Both the position numbers and the translations under genes were made by a program. The notes beneath the pieces are model-generated. The model had not been told where the DNA came from, did not search any database, and was given only the letters and a program-made list of their open reading frames with translations. Below, piece by piece: positions 1-11,353 of a DNA stretch of 12,329 bases. Source of the DNA: a virus (Duplodnaviria > Heunggongvirae > Uroviricota > Caudoviricetes); the IMG/VR virus record IMGVR_UViG_2563366903_000021; one strand, 5' to 3'. Every line of letters begins with the position of its first letter. Position 1 is the first letter of the stretch.

Positions 1-294
1 GTGGCGCACGTCTTCGGTGAACGCACTCTGGCCACACTGGAGCGTCTTCTGAGCCTGCTGTCGGCCTTTGAGGTCGTGGTATGGATGACGGATGGCTGGC
101 CGCTGTATGAATCACGCCTGAAGGGAAAGCTGCACGTTATCAGCAAGCGTTACACTCAGCGCATTGAGCGACATAATCTGAATCTGAGACAACATCTGGC
201 AAGGCTGGGACGGAAGTCACTGTCGTTCTCAAAATCGGTGGAGCTGCATGACAAGGTCATCGGGCATTATCTGAACATAAAACACTATCAGTAA
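1..294 (+). CDS. insB: IS1 transposase InsB, C-terminal portion (true start is upstream of the window; the GTG at 1 is only the frame entering the window)
   Basis: Translation ...[72 protein letters not shown] is the recognisable InsB C-terminus; stop TAA at 292-294 lies inside the IS1 right end. Confidence 0.9.
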
Positions 295-309
295 GTTGGA
301 GTCATTACC
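287..309. repeat. IS1 right terminal inverted repeat (IRR)
   Basis: atcagtaagttggagtcattacc, one mismatch to the canonical IS1 end ATCAATAAGTTGGAGTCATTACC (from memory). Confidence 0.8.
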
Positions 310-627
310 ATCGCCAGGATGATTTCTCAGATAACAGGAGTTGATATTCAGTATTGCCGGAGGCGGGTCGTGTGGTGCGAGAGGGTCCTTGATTCAGAAA
401 TGTTTTATGCAATGAAGCGAGAATTGGAGAAAGAACTTCTAGTGATTACTGGATGATGCAAAATATTTTTTGTAAATGCGTTGCTTTCGAGAAATGAAAG
501 TAGTATGTTTTGTGTATGCTCGGAGCAAAAGCGCACTGAGAAGCGAAAGAGAAATCCTGATTTACCTCGGTCGTCGATAATATTTAGGATCGGCATACTG
601 GCTAGATTAGGTAAAGGCCTCGGCAGA

Positions 628-657
628 AATGTCGGGGCTTTTTGTTTGCACAACAGG
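628..657 (+). terminator. Possible intrinsic terminator
   Basis: Hairpin cctcggc/gtcgggg (7 bp with two G-U pairs, loop agaaat) followed by ctttttgttt. A weak sigma70-like promoter (TTGCTT 481-486, 17-bp spacer, TATGTT 504-509) lies upstream. Confidence 0.35.
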
Positions 658-966: not shown

Positions 967-1185
967 CTCACAATTCCACAGCTTGATGATTGTCTGGCTG
1001 CCGGAGAATTTGTTAAAAATTACATCGCGTGGTGAATCCCCCTCAGCGGCGGGGCATCTGGCAAAGTGTATGATCCAGCGAACATGCAAATTCAGTAGCC
1101 AGGCTGAATTTACCGGGAGGCACCTGGCACCATGCGACAGACAGAAATTAGGCTATACTTCAGCCCCTCTCCGGAGGGGCTTTTC
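967..1185 (+). repeat. Tandem paralogous module, copy A (promoter-like 5' block, conserved internal hairpin, intrinsic terminator); candidate small RNA or vestigial late-promoter/terminator unit
   Basis: Shares with copy B the blocks ctcacaattc, gattgtctggc...tttgttaaaaa, ggtgaatccccct[hairpin]ggggcat, accgggaggcacc(c/t)tg(g)caccatgc and an identical terminal hairpin cagcccctctccggaggggcttt. No reading frame is conserved between the copies. Confidence 0.6.
1163..1185 (+). terminator. Intrinsic terminator closing copy A
   Basis: gcccctc (1163-1169), loop tccg, gaggggc (1174-1180), then TTTT (1181-1184). Confidence 0.7.
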
Positions 1186-1374
1186 TGTGCAGGATGTGTC
1201 ACAGTTTCCTGAATTCTGAGTACTGTCCTGTTACTCAGGGTGCTATATTTTCTGACGTGATGAAAGTCTGCCGGAAGGCGGAACGTATCGGAAATGACCC
1301 AGTAGAGAAAACGTTGACTCAGATACCGATGCTGAGTTACCGGGAAACCGGCATCACATGACCGCTATCCTTCC

Positions 1375-1398
1375 AGGCTCGCTCCGGCGGGCCTTTTT
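1375..1398 (+). terminator. Intrinsic terminator between the two modules
   Basis: aggctcgc (1375-1382), loop tccg, gcgggcct (1387-1394), 8 bp with one G-U, followed by ttttt. Same tccg loop as the module terminators. Confidence 0.5.
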
Positions 1399-1435
1399 AC
1401 TGCAGAAAACAGTTTTCCCGTAAAATGCCACGTTA

Positions 1436-1668
1436 CTCACAATTCAGGCTGGCGATTATTGTCTGGCCAGCGGGAAGTTTGTTAAAAAAATATGGCATGG
1501 TGAATCCCCCTGTGCGGAGGGGCATATCAGCGACAGGTGTTTGGTCACACCCCTTATCCTTTCTGGTGCGGGTTCAGGTGCTGATACTGAACTCACCGGG
1601 AGGCACCCTGCACCATGCATGAACGGTACATAGCGCTACTCTCCAGCCCCTCTCCGGAGGGGCTTTCT
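1436..1668 (+). repeat. Tandem paralogous module, copy B
   Basis: See copy A. The internal hairpin is cccct-gtgcgg-agggg here versus cccc(c)-tcagcggc-gggg in A, so the stem is kept while the loop differs. Terminal hairpin is identical to A. Confidence 0.6.
1647..1668 (+). terminator. Intrinsic terminator closing copy B
   Basis: gcccctc (1647-1653), loop tccg, gaggggc (1658-1664), then tttcttgtt. Confidence 0.65.
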
Positions 1669-1676
1669 TGTTGGAT

Positions 1677-1706
1677 AAAAAAAAGCCCGCGCCGGGAAGC
1701 GCGGGT
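1677..1706 (-). terminator. Intrinsic terminator oriented for leftward transcription
   Basis: On the + strand an A8 tract (1677-1684) precedes hairpin gcccgcgc/gcgcgggt (1685-1692/1699-1706, loop cgggaa). On the - strand this reads as an 8-bp GC-rich hairpin followed by T8. No T-tract follows it on the + strand. Confidence 0.65.
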
Positions 1707-1906
1707 GGCAAGGAATAAACAACAAAACGTGAAGTGATCAATTTTCAGCTGGCGAATAATACCCGACAGTAATCACTCTGCGCAACTGTATGGTCTTTTT
1801 CGTATTGCGGGCTGTAGTCATCCTCCTGTTTCTGAACCCTTGTCCATGACTGACGTCAGCCCGCACCTTATCTTGATTGCATACACTATCCCTGCCGGGA
1901 GGAATA

Positions 1907-3880
1907 ATGGCATTTAAACACTATGACGTGGTCAGGGCATCATCGCCGTCAGACCTCGCAGGAAAACTGACGCAAAAACTGAAGGAAGGCTGGCAACCCT
2001 ATGGTAGTCCGATTATCTCAAACGCGGGTTATGGTGCTGAATTTATCCAGGCTATAGTCGCTGAAGGGGATATGACCTCTCCGGTAGTTTCACCGGGGGG
2101 AGATGGTACCCGGACTGTTGTTGTTGAACCAGAATATTACTTTGTCATTGCGCTGGCCGGACAGTCAAACGGCATGGCGTATGGTGAAGGTCTGCCGCTG
2201 CCGGAGACATATGACCGTCCGGACCCGCGTATTAAACAGCTGGCGCGTCGCAGTACGGTGACACCGGGTGGTGCGGCCTGTGCATATAACGACATCATTC
2301 CGGCGGACCACTGCCTGCATGATGTGCAGGATTTGAGCCGTTTTTCTCATCCGAAAGCCAGCGCAGAGCAGTATGGGTGTGTCGGACAGGGATTGCATAT
2401 TGCCAAAAAGCTGTTGCCCTTTATGCCGGAAAATGCGGGTATTTTGTTAGTGCCGTGCTGTCGTGGTGGCTCTGCGTTTACAGCCGGTGCTGACGGAACG
2501 TTCAGTGAAAGTTCAGGAGCGTCGGATAAATCTGAACGATGGGGCGTTGATAAGCCGTTGTATAAAGACCTGCTGACACGCACTCAGGCCGCGCTGAAGG
2601 CAAACCCCAAAAACATACTGCTTTGTGTTGTCTGGATGCAGGGCGAGTTTGATTTAAAACAGGGAGCGTACGCCAGTCAGCCCGCCATGTTTGATGCCAT
2701 GGTGGAAAAATACCGTTCTGACCTGGCGGGAGTATCCGGTCAGTGCGCTGGTGCTTCTCCTTCTCTGGTGCCCTGGATTTGTGGTGACACGACGTACTAC
2801 TGGAAGGAGACGTATTCAGCGCAATACGATGCCGTCTATGGCGCATACAAAACCAAAGCCGGTAAAAATATCTTCTTTGTGCCGTTTATGATGGATGACA
2901 ATGGTCAGAAAGTCGGGACCAATGAACCGTCAGAAGACCCGGATATTCCGGCTATCGGGTATTATGGTTCCGGTGGACGAACGGATGCGAAGAGCTGGAC
3001 AACATCCGATCGTAAAACCCACTTTGGTTCATGGGCGCGTCGCGGAATTATTTCCGACCGTCTGGCAACAGCCATTCTTCTGCATGTGGGCAGAGTGGCA
3101 GATTTTGTTTCCGGGAAAGTGACAAAAGCCGCGGTTTCTTCAGGCGGAGGCGTATCGCAACCAGCACAGGAGAGTGGCGATACTCAGCCTGAATCCGTTG
3201 TCCCGACAAAGATACAGTCAGTGCTGGCTTATGATGCGAATGCGGAAAATGCCGATCTGGCTTCGCAGGGCTGGACGCTGACAGATGTCAAAAACACGCT
3301 GGTCAGTGACAGTGGTTCAGGTAAAAAAGCCCTTCGTCTTGAAAAACCAGAAAATGGTCTTGCACAGAAAAAGACCTGGAAAGTATCGCACGCAATTGAT
3401 GCCGGTAAGGGGAAGGAGCTGTTCGATAACGGCGGTGAAATCACGCTGCGCTTTAAAATCCCCGATGATGTATCTCTCAATGCTTCTGCAAATCAATATT
3501 CTGCGGGTATTTACTGGCGCGGTAGTGGATGGCCGGGAGCGGAATCAGAGGAGGGTTATATTGCGGCCTTCTATCTGCAGACTGATAAAACAAACATCAA
3601 TGTGATGTATCATGCAAACACCACATCACAGCGGCTTGGTAGTTATGGTCCGTTCGATCACGACTGGCACACGCTGACTTTCCGCTTCCCGGGTGGTGGC
3701 TCGCTGAACGTCACGCCGGTGCTTGATAATGCAGCAGGAAAACCGTTTACGCTGACCAGATGGACGAATGCAGCCTTTGAGGCCAACGCGCTGGCAATTA
3801 CGGATATTACCGGAAATGCGGCAACTTACCCTGTGCTGATTGAAAGTCTTACTGTTGGTGTGAATGCCGTAGCAGCATAA
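1907..3880 (+). CDS. nanS-p: Prophage-encoded sialate O-acetylesterase, NanS-p family (SGNH/SASA esterase with C-terminal carbohydrate-binding-like region)
   Basis: 657-aa ORF starting at ATG 1907 (GGGAGG at 1897-1902); the ORF-track start at 1877 has no SD. N-terminus MAFKHYDVVRASSPSDLAGKL resembles the small N-terminal domain of EHEC prophage NanS-p proteins (DUF1737 by memory). GQSN esterase motif (FVIALAGQSNGMAYGE) is encoded at 2159-2170. Position just upstream of the lysis cassette matches where nanS-p morons sit in Stx and related lambdoid prophages. Confidence 0.85.
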   Translation: MAFKHYDVVRASSPSDLAGKLTQKLKEGWQPYGSPIISNAGYGAEFIQAIVAEGDMTSPVVSPGGDGTRTVVVEPEYYFVIALAGQSNGMAYGEGLPLPETYDRPDPRIKQLARRSTVTPGGAACAYNDIIPADHCLHDVQDLSRFSHPKASAEQYGCVGQGLHIAKKLLPFMPENAGILLVPCCRGGSAFTAGADGTFSESSGASDKSERWGVDKPLYKDLLTRTQAALKANPKNILLCVVWMQGEFDLKQGAYASQPAMFDAMVEKYRSDLAGVSGQCAGASPSLVPWICGDTTYYWKETYSAQYDAVYGAYKTKAGKNIFFVPFMMDDNGQKVGTNEPSEDPDIPAIGYYGSGGRTDAKSWTTSDRKTHFGSWARRGIISDRLATAILLHVGRVADFVSGKVTKAAVSSGGGVSQPAQESGDTQPESVVPTKIQSVLAYDANAENADLASQGWTLTDVKNTLVSDSGSGKKALRLEKPENGLAQKKTWKVSHAIDAGKGKELFDNGGEITLRFKIPDDVSLNASANQYSAGIYWRGSGWPGAESEEGYIAAFYLQTDKTNINVMYHANTTSQRLGSYGPFDHDWHTLTFRFPGGGSLNVTPVLDNAAGKPFTLTRWTNAAFEANALAITDITGNAATYPVLIESLTVGVNAVAA

Positions 3881-9161: not shown

Positions 9162-11305
9162 TGAAAAATGAAACTAATACCATGGCGACGAAAAACGACA
9201 ACGGAGCCACGCCGCGTTTTTCTCAGCGCCAGTTACAGGCGCTTTGTTCTGATATTGACAGTCAGCCTAAATGGCGCGATGCCGCAAACAAGGCCTGTGC
9301 GTATTACGATGGTGACCAGTTGCCACCGGAAGTTCTCCAGGTGTTGAAAGATCGCGGTCAGCCGATGACCATCCATAACCTCATCGCGCCTACCGTTGAT
9401 GGTGTTCTGGGTATGGAGGCCAAAACGCGGACTGATCTGTTGGTGATATCAGATGATCCTGATGATGAAACAGAAAAACTGGCTGAAGCTATTAATGCTG
9501 AATTTGCCGATGCTTGCCGCCTTGGAAATATGAATAAAGCCCGTTCTGATGCCTATGCGGAACAAATCAAAGCGGGGCTCAGCTGGGTGGAGGTCAGACG
9601 GAACAGCGATCCGTTCGGGCCTGAGTTTAAGGTGTCTACTGTCAGCCGGAATGAAGTGTTCTGGGACTGGCTCAGCCGGGAGGCTGATTTAAGTGACTGC
9701 CGCTGGCTGATGCGCCGCCGCTGGATGGATACCGATGAGGCAAAAGCCACATTTCCGGGAATGGCTCAGGTTATCGATTATGCCATTGATGACTGGCGTG
9801 GTTTTGTCGATACCACGGTTACTGAAGGCCAGCCCAGTCCGTTGATGAGTGCATGGGAAGAGTATCAGTCATGGGATCGACAGCAGAACGAATGGCTTCA
9901 GCGTGAACGCCGTCGTGTGCTGCTTCAGGTGGTTTATTACCGTACATTCGAGCGTCTTCCGGTGATTGAACTCAGTAATGGACGGGTGGTGGCCTTTGAT
10001 AAAAATAATCTGATGCATGCGGTGGCTGTGGCATCCGGGCGGGTGCAGGTGAGAGTCGGGCGGGTAAGTCGTATTCGTGAAGCCTGGTTTGTGGGACCGC
10101 ACTTTATTGTGGATCGCCCCTGTAGTGCGCCGCAGGGGATGTTCCCGCTGGTTCCCTTCTGGGGATACCGGAAGGATAAAACCGGGGAGCCTTACGGGCT
10201 GATTTCCCGGGCCATTCCGGCACAGGATGAGGTGAATTTTCGTCGTATAAAACTGACGTGGTTGCTTCAGGCCAAACGCGTGATTATGGACGAGGATGCC
10301 ACCCAGTTGTCAGACAACGAGCTGATGGAGCAGATCGAGCGTCCGGATGGCATTATTAAACTGAATCCGGCCCGAAAAAATCAGAAAAGCGTTGCTGATG
10401 TTTTCCGGGTTGAACAGGATTTTCAGGTTGCCAGCCAGCAGTTTCAGGTCATGCAGGAGTCGGAAAAACTTATCCAGGACACGATGGGGGTTTATTCCGC
10501 ATTTCTCGGGCAGGATTCAAATGCATCGTCCGGTGTGGCGATCAGCAACCTGGTGGAGCAGGGAGCCACAACCCTTGCCGAAATCAACGATAACTACCAG
10601 TTTGCCTGCCAGCAGGTGGGAAGGCTGTTGCTCGCTTATCTTCTTGATGACCTGAAAAAGCGGCGCAATCATGCGGTGGTGATTAATCGCGATGATCGTC
10701 AGCGTCGCCAGACCATTGTCCTCAATGCTGAAGGTGATAATGGTGAACTGACCAATGATATTTCAAGGTTAAATACACATATTGCGCTGGCTCCTGTTCA
10801 GCAGACACCGGCGTTTAAGGCACAGCTTGCACAGAGAATGTCAGAGGTTATTCAGGGGCTGCCACCTCAGGTGCAGGCCGTCGTGCTCGACCTGTGGGTT
10901 AACCTTCTGGATGTGCCGCAGAAACAGGAATTTGTCGAACGTATTCGTGCGGCGCTGGGGACGCCAAAATCACCGGATGAGATGACTCCGGAAGAGCAGG
11001 AAGCGGCAGCACAACAGCAGGCGCTGGAGCAACAGCAGGCAGAACTTCAGATGCGCGAAATGACAGGCCGGGTGGCTAAACTGGAAGCAGAAGCTGCCAG
11101 GGCACGCGCGGCTGCGCAACGGGATAATGCTGGCGCACAACGGGATGTCGCCGCGGCACAGGGACAGCGTTATGTGGATGCGCTTAACCAGGCACATACG
11201 GCAGAAATCATTACCGGCATACAGAATATGGAACAGGAGCAGGAAGTTCTTCAGCAACAGATGCTGCATACACTACAACAGCGGATGCATGAAATGCCGC
11301 TCTGA
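9161..11305 (+). CDS. Portal protein
   Basis: 714-aa ORF immediately after terL with an ATGA stop/start overlap (9159-9163). Size, position and a Gln/Ala-rich coiled-coil C-terminus are typical of portal proteins. Confidence 0.75.
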   Translation: MKNETNTMATKNDNGATPRFSQRQLQALCSDIDSQPKWRDAANKACAYYDGDQLPPEVLQVLKDRGQPMTIHNLIAPTVDGVLGMEAKTRTDLLVISDDPDDETEKLAEAINAEFADACRLGNMNKARSDAYAEQIKAGLSWVEVRRNSDPFGPEFKVSTVSRNEVFWDWLSREADLSDCRWLMRRRWMDTDEAKATFPGMAQVIDYAIDDWRGFVDTTVTEGQPSPLMSAWEEYQSWDRQQNEWLQRERRRVLLQVVYYRTFERLPVIELSNGRVVAFDKNNLMHAVAVASGRVQVRVGRVSRIREAWFVGPHFIVDRPCSAPQGMFPLVPFWGYRKDKTGEPYGLISRAIPAQDEVNFRRIKLTWLLQAKRVIMDEDATQLSDNELMEQIERPDGIIKLNPARKNQKSVADVFRVEQDFQVASQQFQVMQESEKLIQDTMGVYSAFLGQDSNASSGVAISNLVEQGATTLAEINDNYQFACQQVGRLLLAYLLDDLKKRRNHAVVINRDDRQRRQTIVLNAEGDNGELTNDISRLNTHIALAPVQQTPAFKAQLAQRMSEVIQGLPPQVQAVVLDLWVNLLDVPQKQEFVERIRAALGTPKSPDEMTPEEQEAAAQQQALEQQQAELQMREMTGRVAKLEAEAARARAAAQRDNAGAQRDVAAAQGQRYVDALNQAHTAEIITGIQNMEQEQEVLQQQMLHTLQQRMHEMPL

Positions 11306-11325
11306 AAATCCTGAACTTAACGGAA

Positions 11326-11353
11326 CCCCGTCATCGTACGGGGTTTTTTGTTT
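11326..11353 (+). terminator. Intrinsic terminator after the portal gene
   Basis: ccccgt (11326-11331), loop catcgt, acgggg (11338-11343), extendable by flanking A-T pairs, then TTTTTTGTTT. Confidence 0.7.

Follow-up and report, generated by a model that had tools for sequence, protein, structure and literature searches.

The window, by which we mean the whole stretch of 12,329 nucleotides that was analysed, opens with the remains of an insertion sequence and carries, from there to an esterase gene, the following features.

1-309, plus strand: right end of IS1, with the C-terminal part of the transposase and the terminal inverted repeat ending at 309 (NCBIfam NF033558, profile 129-199 of 199)
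310-456, plus strand: what IS1 has left of a Q-like late antiterminator gene, namely its 3' end of ~49 codons, with the break at 309/310
481-509, plus strand: candidate late promoter PR' (TTGCTT, 17 nt, TATGTT), read from the sequence just past the Q stop and upstream of the tR' equivalent
613-648, plus strand: tR'-equivalent intrinsic terminator, a 13-bp hairpin as folded, then UUUUUGUUUG
967-1026, plus strand: candidate promoter region of unit 1, with a box CTCACAATTC (967-976), a -35-like TTGTCT (990-995) and an extended -10-like TGTTAAAAA (1011-1019)
1027-1186, plus strand: predicted unit 1 sRNA, ~160 nt, STnc100 (RF02076, family model R1, MFE fold, terminator)
1241-1402, plus strand: middle unit, a diverged STnc100 paralogue, with an extended -10-like TGcTATATT (1241-1249), a putative RNA from ~1255 and a terminator (1375-1394)
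1436-1494, plus strand: candidate promoter region of unit 3, with the box CTCACAATTC (1436-1445), TTGTCT (1459-1464) and TGTTAAAAA (1480-1488)
1495-1670, plus strand: predicted unit 3 sRNA, ~176 nt, STnc100 (RF02076, R1, fold, terminator), the second of two modules recognised in a first-pass annotation
1678-1862, minus strand: putative convergent sRNA of the EcOnc08/21/42 type, with its terminator at 1705-1686, the U-tract reaching 1678 and CCUUGCC just upstream of the terminator
1907-3880, plus strand: DUF1737-SASA-DUF6645 carbohydrate (sialate O-acetyl) esterase (Pfam; 'SASA family carbohydrate esterase' in RefSeq relatives)

The uninterrupted prophage and phage are homologous to the window from position 310 onwards, and the Q fragment corresponds to positions 4001-4147 of L001, within a 204-aa protein (L001 3533-4147) that matched phrog_753, 'anti-termination protein Q-like' (E 3.3e-68). 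This protein gave no match in Pfam or NCBIfam and is named by PHROGs only; in relatives, its gene comes after ninB-rusA-ninH. The first-pass annotation had stated that no Q gene lies upstream of the modules, which the interrupted fragment at 310-456 contradicts. Beyond the fragment, the candidate PR' was not called by a consensus promoter scan, and the region of the tR' equivalent (600-650) folded at -19.5 kcal/mol (z -3.25). Homology with phage HK75 starts exactly at the U-tract of its annotated Tr' and runs to window position ~952. No tRNA genes of the kind found upstream in Stx phages were detected by ARAGORN, and a tRNA-like match at 721-847 was sub-threshold. On the other side, the downstream gene set comprises the esterase, holin, lysozyme, Rz, terminase and portal genes. 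As arranged here, sRNA genes with putative promoters of their own lie in a prophage that has lost its late antiterminator to IS1.

Family membership of the tandem units

The modules at 967-1185 and 1436-1668 are copies of STnc100, a catalogued sRNA family of lambda-like E. coli and Salmonella prophages, which was a Salmonella Hfq-associated sRNA candidate when first listed (RF02076). The Infernal/Rfam comparison proposed in the first-pass annotation matched RF02076 to 997-1190 in unit 1 (139.9 bits, E = 1.7e-31) and to 1466-1675 in unit 3 (129.9 bits, E = 6.2e-29), in both cases over model positions 1-206 and about three times above the gathering score of 47 bits. Our family model R1 gave 138.7 and 161.1 bits for units 1 and 3, respectively, and a pairwise alignment of the two modules showed 81% mean column identity over 258 columns. 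Since both units match one covariance model end to end, the resemblance between the modules is not due to chance. The finding of two paralogous terminator-capped modules is therefore real, yet already known: they are neither a new RNA class nor orphan late promoters. A weak R1 match elsewhere in the window, at 11287-11352, is merely the terminator after the portal gene.

The count of two modules was incomplete, as a third, diverged unit with its own terminator lies between them and had been missed. The full-model score threshold of STnc100 was reached by units 1 and 3 and not by this middle unit, which scored 30 bits in Rfam (E 3e-4, below the gathering score). With R1, it was matched at 1255-1402 over the full model length (44.8 bits, E ~1e-11), and by MFE it folds into the same architecture (z -2.48). 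The region of the middle unit was found in 673 of 5426 complete E. coli genomes (~12%), and among 15 rows sampled, 14 had no annotated feature under the match.

All the sequence elements on which the modules had been recognised were also seen by us. Both have the TTGTCT, 17-nt spacer and TTAAAA (1013-1018 and 1482-1487) of the promoter-like block, an internal hairpin whose CCCCC/GGGGG stem is kept while its loop differs, and a common 3' block running from ACCGGGAGGCACC to GCACCATGC. The identical terminal hairpin, AGCCCCTCTCCGGAGGGGCT followed by a T-tract, was called terminator-like at 1162-1181 and 1645-1664. A terminator scan of 300-2000 gave 11 such sites against 1.7 ± 1.5 in shuffled sequence; the U-tracts of the terminators are interrupted (UUUUCUGU and UUUCUUGUU).

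As had been noted, the conserved block is not read in the same frame by ORF 926-1219 as by ORF 1425-1622 (offsets 0 and 2). The presence of ORFs over both modules, and of an SD-like GGGAGG 11 nt before an AUG within the conserved block, could suggest that the modules encode small proteins, from these ORFs or from a short one beginning at that AUG. Some translation is possible, given that ribosome footprints have been obtained by RIBOseq on some EDL933 copies (RCV up to 3.2), and the depositors of PhiR5_2, a relative with an intact Q, annotated short hypothetical CDSs in the corresponding region. Nevertheless, among 47 homologues no frame is kept: distances between conserved blocks take all three values modulo 3, and just 17 of the 47 have any stop-free frame. 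The frame initiated at the AUG would pass through the terminator, its stop being absent inside the sRNA, and PGAP calls no gene, RefSeq having no CDS between Q and the esterase in relatives. Compensatory base-pair changes, described below, account for the conservation, so that the original reading as conserved RNA rather than protein holds and a coding function is very improbable.

The first-pass annotation also considered that the modules were duplicated late-promoter units, that is PR', a 6S-like RNA and tR', orphaned from Q. They do combine a promoter with a terminator, lie on the late strand and precede lysis genes, and, as the case of StxS shows, an RNA from PR'-tR' can be an Hfq-binding sRNA (PMC7873438); like StxS and lambda 6S, the units would give short terminated late-region transcripts that are read through under Q. 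However, the Q-like fragment runs to 456, and the annotated Tr' of HK75 has its positional counterpart in another terminator, that at 613-648. The StxS/6S role falls here to ~516-648, and the units have no detectable sequence or model similarity with those RNAs. A PR'-tR' unit has its promoter at the end of Q and its terminator as the first late terminator, whereas the units start 570 and 1040 nt past the Q stop (456). In addition, the STnc100 family lies after stxB in Stx1 and Stx2 phages, far from PR', and also adjoins unrelated Q types. All these data make the duplicated late-promoter explanation scarcely credible. The late-region, late-strand context itself is that of STnc100, with the Q-like fragment and tR' equivalent on one side and the esterase and lysis genes on the other.

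Fold, covariation and probable seed

The covariation analysis that had been suggested as a check was run on 47 distinct homologues, aligned with structure-blind MAFFT and folded with RNAalifold, which recovered the Rfam fold. Paired cells amounted to 99.1%, against 96.4% in shuffles, and changes on both sides were present in 16 of 36 pairs, compared with 2.5 ± 1.1 in shuffles (0 of 500 reached this value) and 1-5 in slid controls; compensatory changes thus support the fold. The 5' hairpin is invariant, partly because the pattern with which the homologues were gathered covers it, and is therefore without covariation evidence. The window units have the STnc100 secondary structure, consisting of a closing helix between the 5' end and CACCAUGC, internal hairpins and a terminator hairpin. 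The MFE structure of unit 1 reproduces that of the family, with a closing helix of 8 bp and three internal hairpins, then the variable stretch at 1135-1161, which is single-stranded, and the terminator (1162-1181), and the cmscan structure lines contain few non-canonical pairs. In unit 3, the small CCGGG/CCCGG hairpin contains one mismatch, and folding of this sequence alone gave a result no better than shuffles (z -1.38).

The conserved 3' block had been described as single-stranded and as a seed shared by the two modules. Neither claim fits the fold, in which the block is predicted to be paired, forming the CCGGG/CCCGG hairpin and the 3' strand of the 8-bp helix that closes with the 5' end, while the stretch equivalent to the PasD seed varies between units. 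The shared block thus appears to be a paired scaffold, and the seed is likely to be the variable stretch before each terminator (1135-1161 in unit 1, probably 1358-1375 in the middle unit and 1617-1644 in unit 3). This is suggested by analogy with PasD, whose target motif CUCACA pairs with UGUGAG, a sequence that falls, in the alignment, on the unpaired segment of the model before the terminator. In the proposed scaffold, the 5' end would pair with CACCAUGC to close a multi-hairpin domain, which would be followed by 20-30 nt of unstructured RNA and then by the terminator hairpin. Each RNA would be expected to bind Hfq and base-pair in trans, like Esr055, EcOnc27/sRNA103 and PasD. If the variable pre-terminator stretch is the seed, the three units should therefore have different sets of targets. 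RNAduplex predictions between the three putative seed stretches and the translation-initiation regions of eight window genes gave a best z of -2.2 in 24 tests, none of them significant.

Furthermore, the central and pre-terminator segments of the family behave as reassorting cassettes. We distinguished 10 central and 13 3' types in 22 combinations, and all four combinations of C1/C4 with T1/T2 are present. It is possible, although we are inclined to doubt it, that STnc100 constitutes a 'programmable' sRNA chassis, in which a conserved scaffold carries central and pre-terminator cassettes that reassort by recombination among prophages, three differently loaded versions being stacked here. If this were true and all three were expressed, one prophage would obtain three target specificities plus a convergent fourth sRNA, an arrangement that would outlast the inactivation of Q. 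The search for targets could profit from three points, namely a likely seed in the variable pre-terminator stretch and not in the conserved block, cassettes that reassort between copies, and a widespread sub-threshold paralogue that has no feature under the match in 14 of the 15 sampled records.

Predicted transcription units at the moron site

Taken as a whole, the region bounded by the late terminator tR' on one side and by the esterase and lysis genes on the other very probably contains three tandem, independently transcribed STnc100 genes plus one convergent sRNA, at the 'moron' site of a lambdoid prophage. Each unit would be transcribed from a weak sigma-70 promoter with an extended -10 and would stop at its Rho-independent terminator. 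The plus-strand unit promoters were not called by a generic sigma-70 consensus scan, because their hexamers are weak; the same three promoter blocks recur in conserved form ahead of 54 distinct members of the family. These candidate promoters are backed by this conservation and by the mapped 5' ends of relatives. The Rfam model takes in ~30 nt of promoter, and judging from the mapped relatives the RNA starts at about model position 30. Transcription would start within the family GCAUGGUG 5' motif, at its G or, in the middle unit, at an A; the motif reads GCGUGGUG in unit 1 and ACGUGAUG in the middle unit. In this regard, the VT1-Sakai copy has a context identical to that of Esr055, with its Rfam match at 775-984 and GCATGG from 805, so that 805-978 gives 174 nt, and the RNA-seq 5' end of PasD2 is the same G as the family start.

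By homology with RACE-mapped Esr055 and the RNA-seq ends of PasD2, the transcripts would span ~1027-1186 and ~1495-1670. The inferred lengths of 160 and 176 nt, like the 174 nt of Esr055, agree with the ~160-170 nt originally predicted. If Q were intact, transcription coming from the late promoter PR' would pass through the units, and in the lysogen they would depend on their own promoters. Here Q is broken by IS1 and therefore only the sRNA promoters should matter.

Converging on unit 3, the minus strand from 1678 to ~1862 shows the homology of an EcOnc08/21/42-type RNA and constitutes a putative sRNA gene. An alignment of 1560-1900 with the PP6 region of E2348/69, which holds the RIL-seq sRNA E2348C_1409.E2348C_1408.IGR, gave ~85% mean identity. 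The CCUUGCC of this RNA is complementary to the RIL-seq target motif GGCAAGG/GGCAGGG, and the probe of Tree et al. for EcOnc08/21/42 corresponds to window ~1754-1788. Its 5' end is uncertain, lying at ~1862 by the EPEC estimate and further away according to the ~271-nt Northern band of EHEC. A short promoter, TTGCGC-18-TATTAT (1783-1754), was considered for it and is probably internal, as the published probe lies upstream. The AgvB, AsxR and Esr41 models gave no meaningful matches on the convergent strand, and the window contains neither the PasA nor the PasC probe sequence. Unit 3 and its convergent partner would form the 'sRNA dyad at the moron site' known from EHEC prophages.

Relatives and possible roles

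The studied members of STnc100 are Esr055, EcOnc27/sRNA103 and EcOnc05/06, with PasD1/PasD2 being more distant. A family member would be expected to appear as a discrete, Hfq-associated RNA of ~160-210 nt, and these relatives are Hfq-associated sRNAs by Northern blot, RACE, CRAC or RIL-seq (PMC5326754, PMC4104026, PMC8550237), including RACE and Northern data for Esr055, CRAC and Northern data for EcOnc05/06/27 (PMC4104026) and RIL-seq for PasD (PMC8550237). In EDL933, a Northern blot for STnc100_4 and RNA-seq for 11 STnc100 copies have been reported (PMC5331693). The window units share with the family its fold, its prophage late-region context and its multi-copy habit (11 copies in EDL933, multiple in LT2); the tandem arrangement of three units, of which the middle one is sub-threshold in Rfam, sets the window apart.

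Esr055 of EHEC EDL933 (Han et al. 2017, PMC5326754), a 174-nt RNA mapped by RACE between stx1B and an esterase gene, occupies the same slot just upstream of the esterase and has the same GCAUGGUG start and the same terminator; the VT1-Sakai copy (Esr055) scored 176.7 bits against STnc100. The 3' cassette of Esr055/EcOnc05 resembles that of unit 3. Esr055 differs in being a single copy after stx1B, in its -10 region (TTAGAAAA, compared with TTAAAAA in the window units), in its central cassette and in its reported DeoR-dependent activation. The dyads of EHEC Sakai (Tree et al. 2014, PMC4104026) are also alike, as a long late-strand sRNA converges on an opposite-strand sRNA in the interval from PR'/moron to a conserved esterase-like ORF. 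The probe for EcOnc27 matches a 3' cassette of the family that is related to the one in unit 1, while those for EcOnc05/06 match one of its central cassettes. The minus-strand partner in the window is of the EcOnc08/21/42 type, which is paired with EcOnc05 in Sp4, whereas AsxR or AgvB, which are absent here, take the convergent position in Sp5, Sp10 and Sp17. Unlike the Sakai dyads, that of the window is preceded by two further family units.

PasD1 and PasD2 of EPEC E2348/69 (Pearl Mizrahi et al. 2021), for which common ancestry with STnc100 has been proposed (Zhu, Shabalina and Storz 2026 preprint), have a similar scaffold, 5' end and analogous pre-terminator seed, and PasD2 lies upstream of an esterase. 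However, they score 38-41 bits with Rfam STnc100 and 34-35 bits with our family model, and have a TTGACT -35 and a different terminator. The PasD seed UGUGAG upstream of a GGCUGCGCA terminator is absent from the window units, whose likeness to PasD is limited to the scaffold; they are much closer to canonical STnc100.

The first-pass annotation had proposed a pair of prophage sRNAs or anti-sRNAs with a shared seed. In substance its first part stands, as the units are full-length STnc100 copies with Hfq-associated relatives; they are not of the AgvB/AsxR anti-sRNA type, and a shared seed is not supported. A related possibility, a variant of the trans-acting model, is that the units are sponges for core-genome sRNAs and not mRNA regulators, as are AgvB and AsxR, neighbouring prophage sRNAs at the very same site. 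AgvB and AsxR are RNAs of 51-60 nt that share a conserved 3' portion of ~42 nt and are transcribed on the strand opposite to the late operon, whereas the units are about three times longer (~160-176 nt) and lie on the late-transcription strand. The corresponding models (RF02702/RF02703) gave no match at E up to 5 over 300-1950 and up to 10 over 1655-1880. Furthermore, the RIL-seq partners of PasD are mostly mRNAs (aceE, uspA, yhdW, bfpB), and a sponge function is unlikely. The targets described for Esr055 and sRNA103 are predictions or overexpression effects, and there is no direct validated target of a canonical STnc100 member in the literature.

The role of the array could also be mainly in cis, its RNAs being by-products: three stacked terminators and a bidirectional one would insulate the esterase and lysis genes from read-through in the lysogen, making late expression strictly Q-dependent, or the units would be a processed esterase leader. 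This agrees with the four plus-strand terminator-like hairpins between tR' and the esterase, plus the convergent one, with the consistent position of the family between PR'/moron and the esterase/lysis genes, and with the strong conservation of the scaffold even where it is unpaired. On the other hand, a terminator alone needs no conserved promoter, compensating 8-bp closing helix or reassorting cassettes, and what accumulates in the case of the relatives is a discrete RNA that is bound to Hfq and has many RIL-seq partners. We therefore hold a mainly cis role to be improbable, although insulation and an array of trans-acting sRNAs are compatible and not mutually exclusive.

An array of trans-acting sRNAs, the reading we prefer, would concern a family that ranks among those sRNAs annotated most often in the genomes of enterobacteria. 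Esr055 has been studied in gut-site colonisation, and sequence variants of EcOnc27, which lies downstream of stx2, have recently been linked to HUS risk.

Identity and number of the units

The two tandem modules recognised in the first-pass annotation at 967-1185 (unit 1) and 1436-1668 (unit 3) are present in the window, and their alignment showed 81% mean column identity over 258 columns. Both contain a promoter-like block, a CCCCC...GGGGG hairpin whose loops differ, the common block ACCGGGAGGCACC..GCACCATGC and an identical terminal hairpin, AGCCCCTCTCCGGAGGGGCT, followed by a T-tract. In the Rfam scan that had been proposed as a check, just two matches in the window exceeded the gathering score, both to RF02076 (STnc100; gathering score 47) and both full-length, so the modules, which had been left without a named sRNA, are STnc100 genes.

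Features of the three units (window coordinates)
990-995/1013-1018 and 1459-1464/1482-1487, + strand: promoter-like TTGTCT, 17-nt spacer, TTAAAA of units 1 and 3 (sequence)
997-1190: STnc100 match of unit 1, full 206-position model, 139.9 bits, E 1.7e-31
1466-1675: STnc100 match of unit 3, full 206-position model, 129.9 bits, E 6.2e-29
1162-1181 and 1645-1664, + strand: terminators of units 1 and 3 (consensus scan)
1241-1249, + strand: good extended -10, TGcTATATT, ahead of the middle unit (sequence)
1375-1394, + strand: terminator of the middle unit (consensus scan)

Additionally, a relaxed Rfam threshold gave an STnc100-like match between the two modules (1226-1401; 30 bits, E 3e-4, below the gathering score). 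R1, a covariance model built from our alignment of 47 homologues, matched this middle unit over the full model at 1255-1402 with 44.8 bits (rough E ~1e-11), higher than the EPEC sRNAs PasD1 and PasD2 (34-35 bits). Its MFE fold (z -2.48) has the family architecture with altered helices (GUGAUG/CAUCAC, UCUGCC/GGCGGA, CCGG/CCGG). These matches, together with the fold, the -10 and the terminator, make the locus a three-unit STnc100 array. Of 5426 complete E. coli genomes, 673 contain the middle-unit region; among 15 sampled rows, 14 have no annotated feature where the match falls. Tandems of two or more units occurred in 15 of 111 IMG/VR loci, one with four; IMG/VR contig L009 (2268-3350) has four tandem STnc100-like units, two of them partial or diverged. 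The consensus scan found 11 terminator-like sites in 300-2000 versus 1.7±1.5 in shuffles.

A review ranks STnc100 with the sRNA families annotated most often and notes that it has no assigned function (PMC9029176). EDL933 has 11 copies, which are transcribed, one being confirmed by Northern (PMC5331693), and Salmonella LT2 has several, with RpoD-bound promoters (PMC10794520). In STEC, stx2 is followed at a distance of 75 nt by a copy (PMC12370729) that overlaps the Hfq-bound EcOnc27/sRNA103, where SNPs have recently been associated with HUS (PMC12711010). A common ancestor of PasD1/PasD2 and STnc100 has been proposed in a 2026 preprint (10.64898/2026.05.13.724894). Both the sRNA family and its architectural setting were already known; what is added here is modest, namely a third paralogue that scores below threshold, the arrangement of the units in tandem, a different location for the likely seed, and cassettes that reassort.

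Conserved fold and non-coding nature

Relatives were gathered from IMG/VR by a 15-nt pattern and the elements located with nhmmer, which gave 96 full-length hits (49 distinct sequences); 47 canonical sequences were aligned with MAFFT, which is blind to structure. RNAalifold recovered the Rfam fold on this alignment.

Consensus fold (RNAalifold, 47 homologues)
Closing helix, 8 bp: 5' end (GCAUGGUG) with CACCAUGC
5' hairpin: invariant in the alignment
8-bp hairpin: GGGUUCAG/CUGAACUC
Small hairpin: CCGGG-AGGCA-CCCGG
3' part: unpaired stretch, then terminator

Pair counting showed 99.1% of cells paired versus 96.4% in shuffles, and both-side changes in 16 of 36 pairs versus 2.5±1.1 (none of 500 shuffles reached 16), while only 1-5 pairs had such changes when partners were slid by 1-3 columns as a control. 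Double changes affected five of the eight pairs of the closing helix and seven of eight in the 8-bp hairpin; the 5' hairpin is invariant, which is uninformative because the collection pattern spans its 5' arm. The conserved block previously described as single-stranded is instead predicted to form the small hairpin and the 3' strand of the closing helix.

The proposal that the units are RNA rather than protein held up. The ORFs over them (926-1219 and 1425-1622) read the shared block in different frames, with offsets 0 and 2, as had been noted. Across the 47 homologues no reading frame connects the conserved blocks, whose spacings take all three values modulo 3, and only 17 have any stop-free frame; RefSeq annotation of relatives has no CDS between Q and the esterase gene. 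Although ribosome footprints were reported on some STnc100 copies in a RIBOseq study (PMC5331693), this frame analysis contradicts small proteins encoded by the units, which we consider very unlikely. The scaffold at 1115-1134 and 1598-1617 has an SD-like GGGAGG that lies in and around the loop of the small hairpin, and 11 nt beyond it comes an AUG belonging to the closing helix. Ribosomes might conceivably bind here without translating productively, or a protein might bind the loop.

An interrupted Q-like gene and the moron site

Upstream features
1-309: IS1 right end (IS1 transposase match, NCBIfam)
310-456, + strand: end of a Q-like gene, last ~49 codons (homology with uninterrupted relatives)
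613-648, downstream of the Q stop: hairpin and U-tract, tR' equivalent (fold z -3.25)

The IS1 terminal repeat ends at 309. Beyond it, starting at 310, the window shares 99.7-99.8% identity with phage PhiR5_2 and with prophages of 17 E. coli genomes. The stretch 310-456 forms, in these relatives, the 3' end of a 204-aa gene lying after ninB-rusA-ninH, whose product matches PHROG 753 ('anti-termination protein Q-like', E 3.3e-68). Therefore a Q gene, previously thought to be missing upstream, is present but cut by IS1, and with only ~49 codons left on this side the late operon is probably Q-defective (cryptic). In an intact lambdoid phage, Q-modified polymerase would read through the units' terminators. 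With Q disrupted here, activity should be confined to the promoters of the units themselves, and the sRNA genes, having these promoters, would remain active in a Q-defective prophage.

Homology to phage HK75 starts exactly at the U-tract of its annotated Tr' and runs to about 952, beyond which HK75 goes on to holin while the window has the sRNA array and the esterase gene. This boundary, together with the hairpin and U-tract after the Q stop, identifies 613-648 as the tR' equivalent. Eight Sakai prophages carry convergent Hfq-bound sRNA pairs between PR'/moron and a conserved ORF (Tree et al., PMC4104026; PMC7873438), and the STnc100 array occupies this moron site. Given both positions, duplicated lambdoid PR'/tR' units orphaned from Q, one of the two initial readings, are contradicted and extremely improbable. 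The original observation stands, and its interpretation is partly right, in that the modules are sRNA genes.

A candidate PR' (TTGCTT-17-TATGTT) may be placed at 481-509. The resulting ~130-nt RNA, at about 516-648, folds well (z -3.19) and would be a 6S/StxS analogue. The HK75 mosaic boundary at the terminator U-tract joins different Q/PR'/tR' cassettes to a common downstream leader (639-952), which is kept in HK75 and many P22-like Salmonella phages between tR' and lysis genes. Within it, 721-847 is a degenerate tRNA-like sequence (GGTTCGATTCC T-arm; Rfam tRNA 26.5 bits, gathering score 29), where ARAGORN found no tRNA.

Transcripts, variable cassettes and the convergent sRNA

Esr055 is a 174-nt RNA by RACE, located between stx1B and the esterase gene z3342 (PMC5326754). 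In phage VT1-Sakai, where the context is the same, Rfam matched STnc100 at 775-984 (record L136; 176.7 bits). There GCATGGTG begins at 805, and 174 nt counted from this point end at 978, in the T-tract of the terminator; Esr055 is thus an STnc100 member, starting at the G of GCAUGGUG, ~30 nt inside the Rfam model. The RNA-seq-derived 5' end of PasD2 (NC_011601 741157) is the equivalent G, 8 nt past TTGACT-17-TTAAAA. By homology, transcripts would span about 1027-1186 (unit 1, 160 nt) and 1495-1670 (unit 3, 176 nt), in agreement with the initial estimate of ~160-170 nt. Published Northern probes (reverse complements) for EcOnc27, EcOnc05 and EcOnc06 match variable cassettes of aligned family members.

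Conserved promoter blocks and a conserved scaffold are present in every unit, as is a terminator, and the promoter blocks (CTCACAATTC box, TTGTCT, TGTTAAAA) precede 54 distinct family members. A conserved CTCACAATTCAG box at 967-976 and 1436-1445, also upstream in loci L006-L125, is found in most members ~50-60 nt ahead of where the sRNA begins. It frequently has GTTGAC after it and could be a regulator binding site or second promoter; Esr055 is reportedly DeoR-activated through a proposed site that differs from it (PMC5326754).

Seed-like stretches and convergent sRNA
1135-1161, 1358-1375 and 1617-1644, + strand: stretches corresponding to the PasD seed segment, different between units (alignment to model)
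1678-~1862, - strand: convergent sRNA, EcOnc08/21/42 / E2348C_1409.1408.IGR type (homology, terminator)
1705-1686, - strand: its strong bidirectional terminator (consensus scan)

From their relatives, the units may associate with Hfq and act in trans by base pairing. The PasD target motif CUCACA pairs with UGUGAG, which aligns in R1 to the unpaired segment between closing helix and terminator. Across the aligned homologues we found 10 central and 13 3' cassette types in 22 combinations, and C1/C4 with T1/T2 as well as C1/C2 with T1/T5 occur in all four combinations (four-gamete pattern), which suggests recombination within the conserved scaffold blocks. As the pre-terminator stretches differ and cassettes reassort, three different target sets would be expected. 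Sponge activity, a variant of trans action, is improbable. A cis-acting terminator stack or leader is compatible with sRNA genes acting in trans but leaves the promoters, the covarying scaffold and the cassettes unexplained, and we regard it as unlikely. A duplex search of the three pre-terminator stretches against the initiation regions of the window's own genes gave nothing, and no validated direct target has been reported for any canonical STnc100 member (PMC7873438).

The convergent sRNA sequence has ~85% mean identity (alignment 1560-1900) with the E2348/69 PP6 locus, which holds the RIL-seq candidate E2348C_1409.E2348C_1408.IGR, noted as homologous to EcOnc08/21/42, whose published probe corresponds to ~1754-1788. 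Just ahead of its terminator is CCUUGCC, complementary to the target motif GGCAAGG/GGCAGGG of the E2348/69 RNA. Its 5' end is uncertain, about 1862 (EPEC estimate) or further; the RNA would be antisense to the esterase start codon (1907) if its length matches that of the ~271-nt EHEC band. Identity with AgvB, AsxR or Esr41 was rejected, as their models gave no meaningful match.

Some part of 300-1900 is present in 3023 of 5426 complete E. coli genomes, at up to 9 places per genome, and in Escherichia, Stx-converting and Salmonella phage records. The exact scaffold 23-mer was found in species representatives of Escherichia, Shigella, Enterobacter and Leclercia; a further exact match, on an 888-bp contig of Xanthomonas pisi DSM 18956 (L135), most likely reflects contamination of that assembly by enterobacterial or phage DNA. 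Lastly, a weak R1 match was rejected as spurious, since it picked up an intrinsic terminator-like hairpin at 11326-11352 (AACCCCGT...ACGGGGTTTTTTGTTT) directly 3' of the P22-type portal gene.
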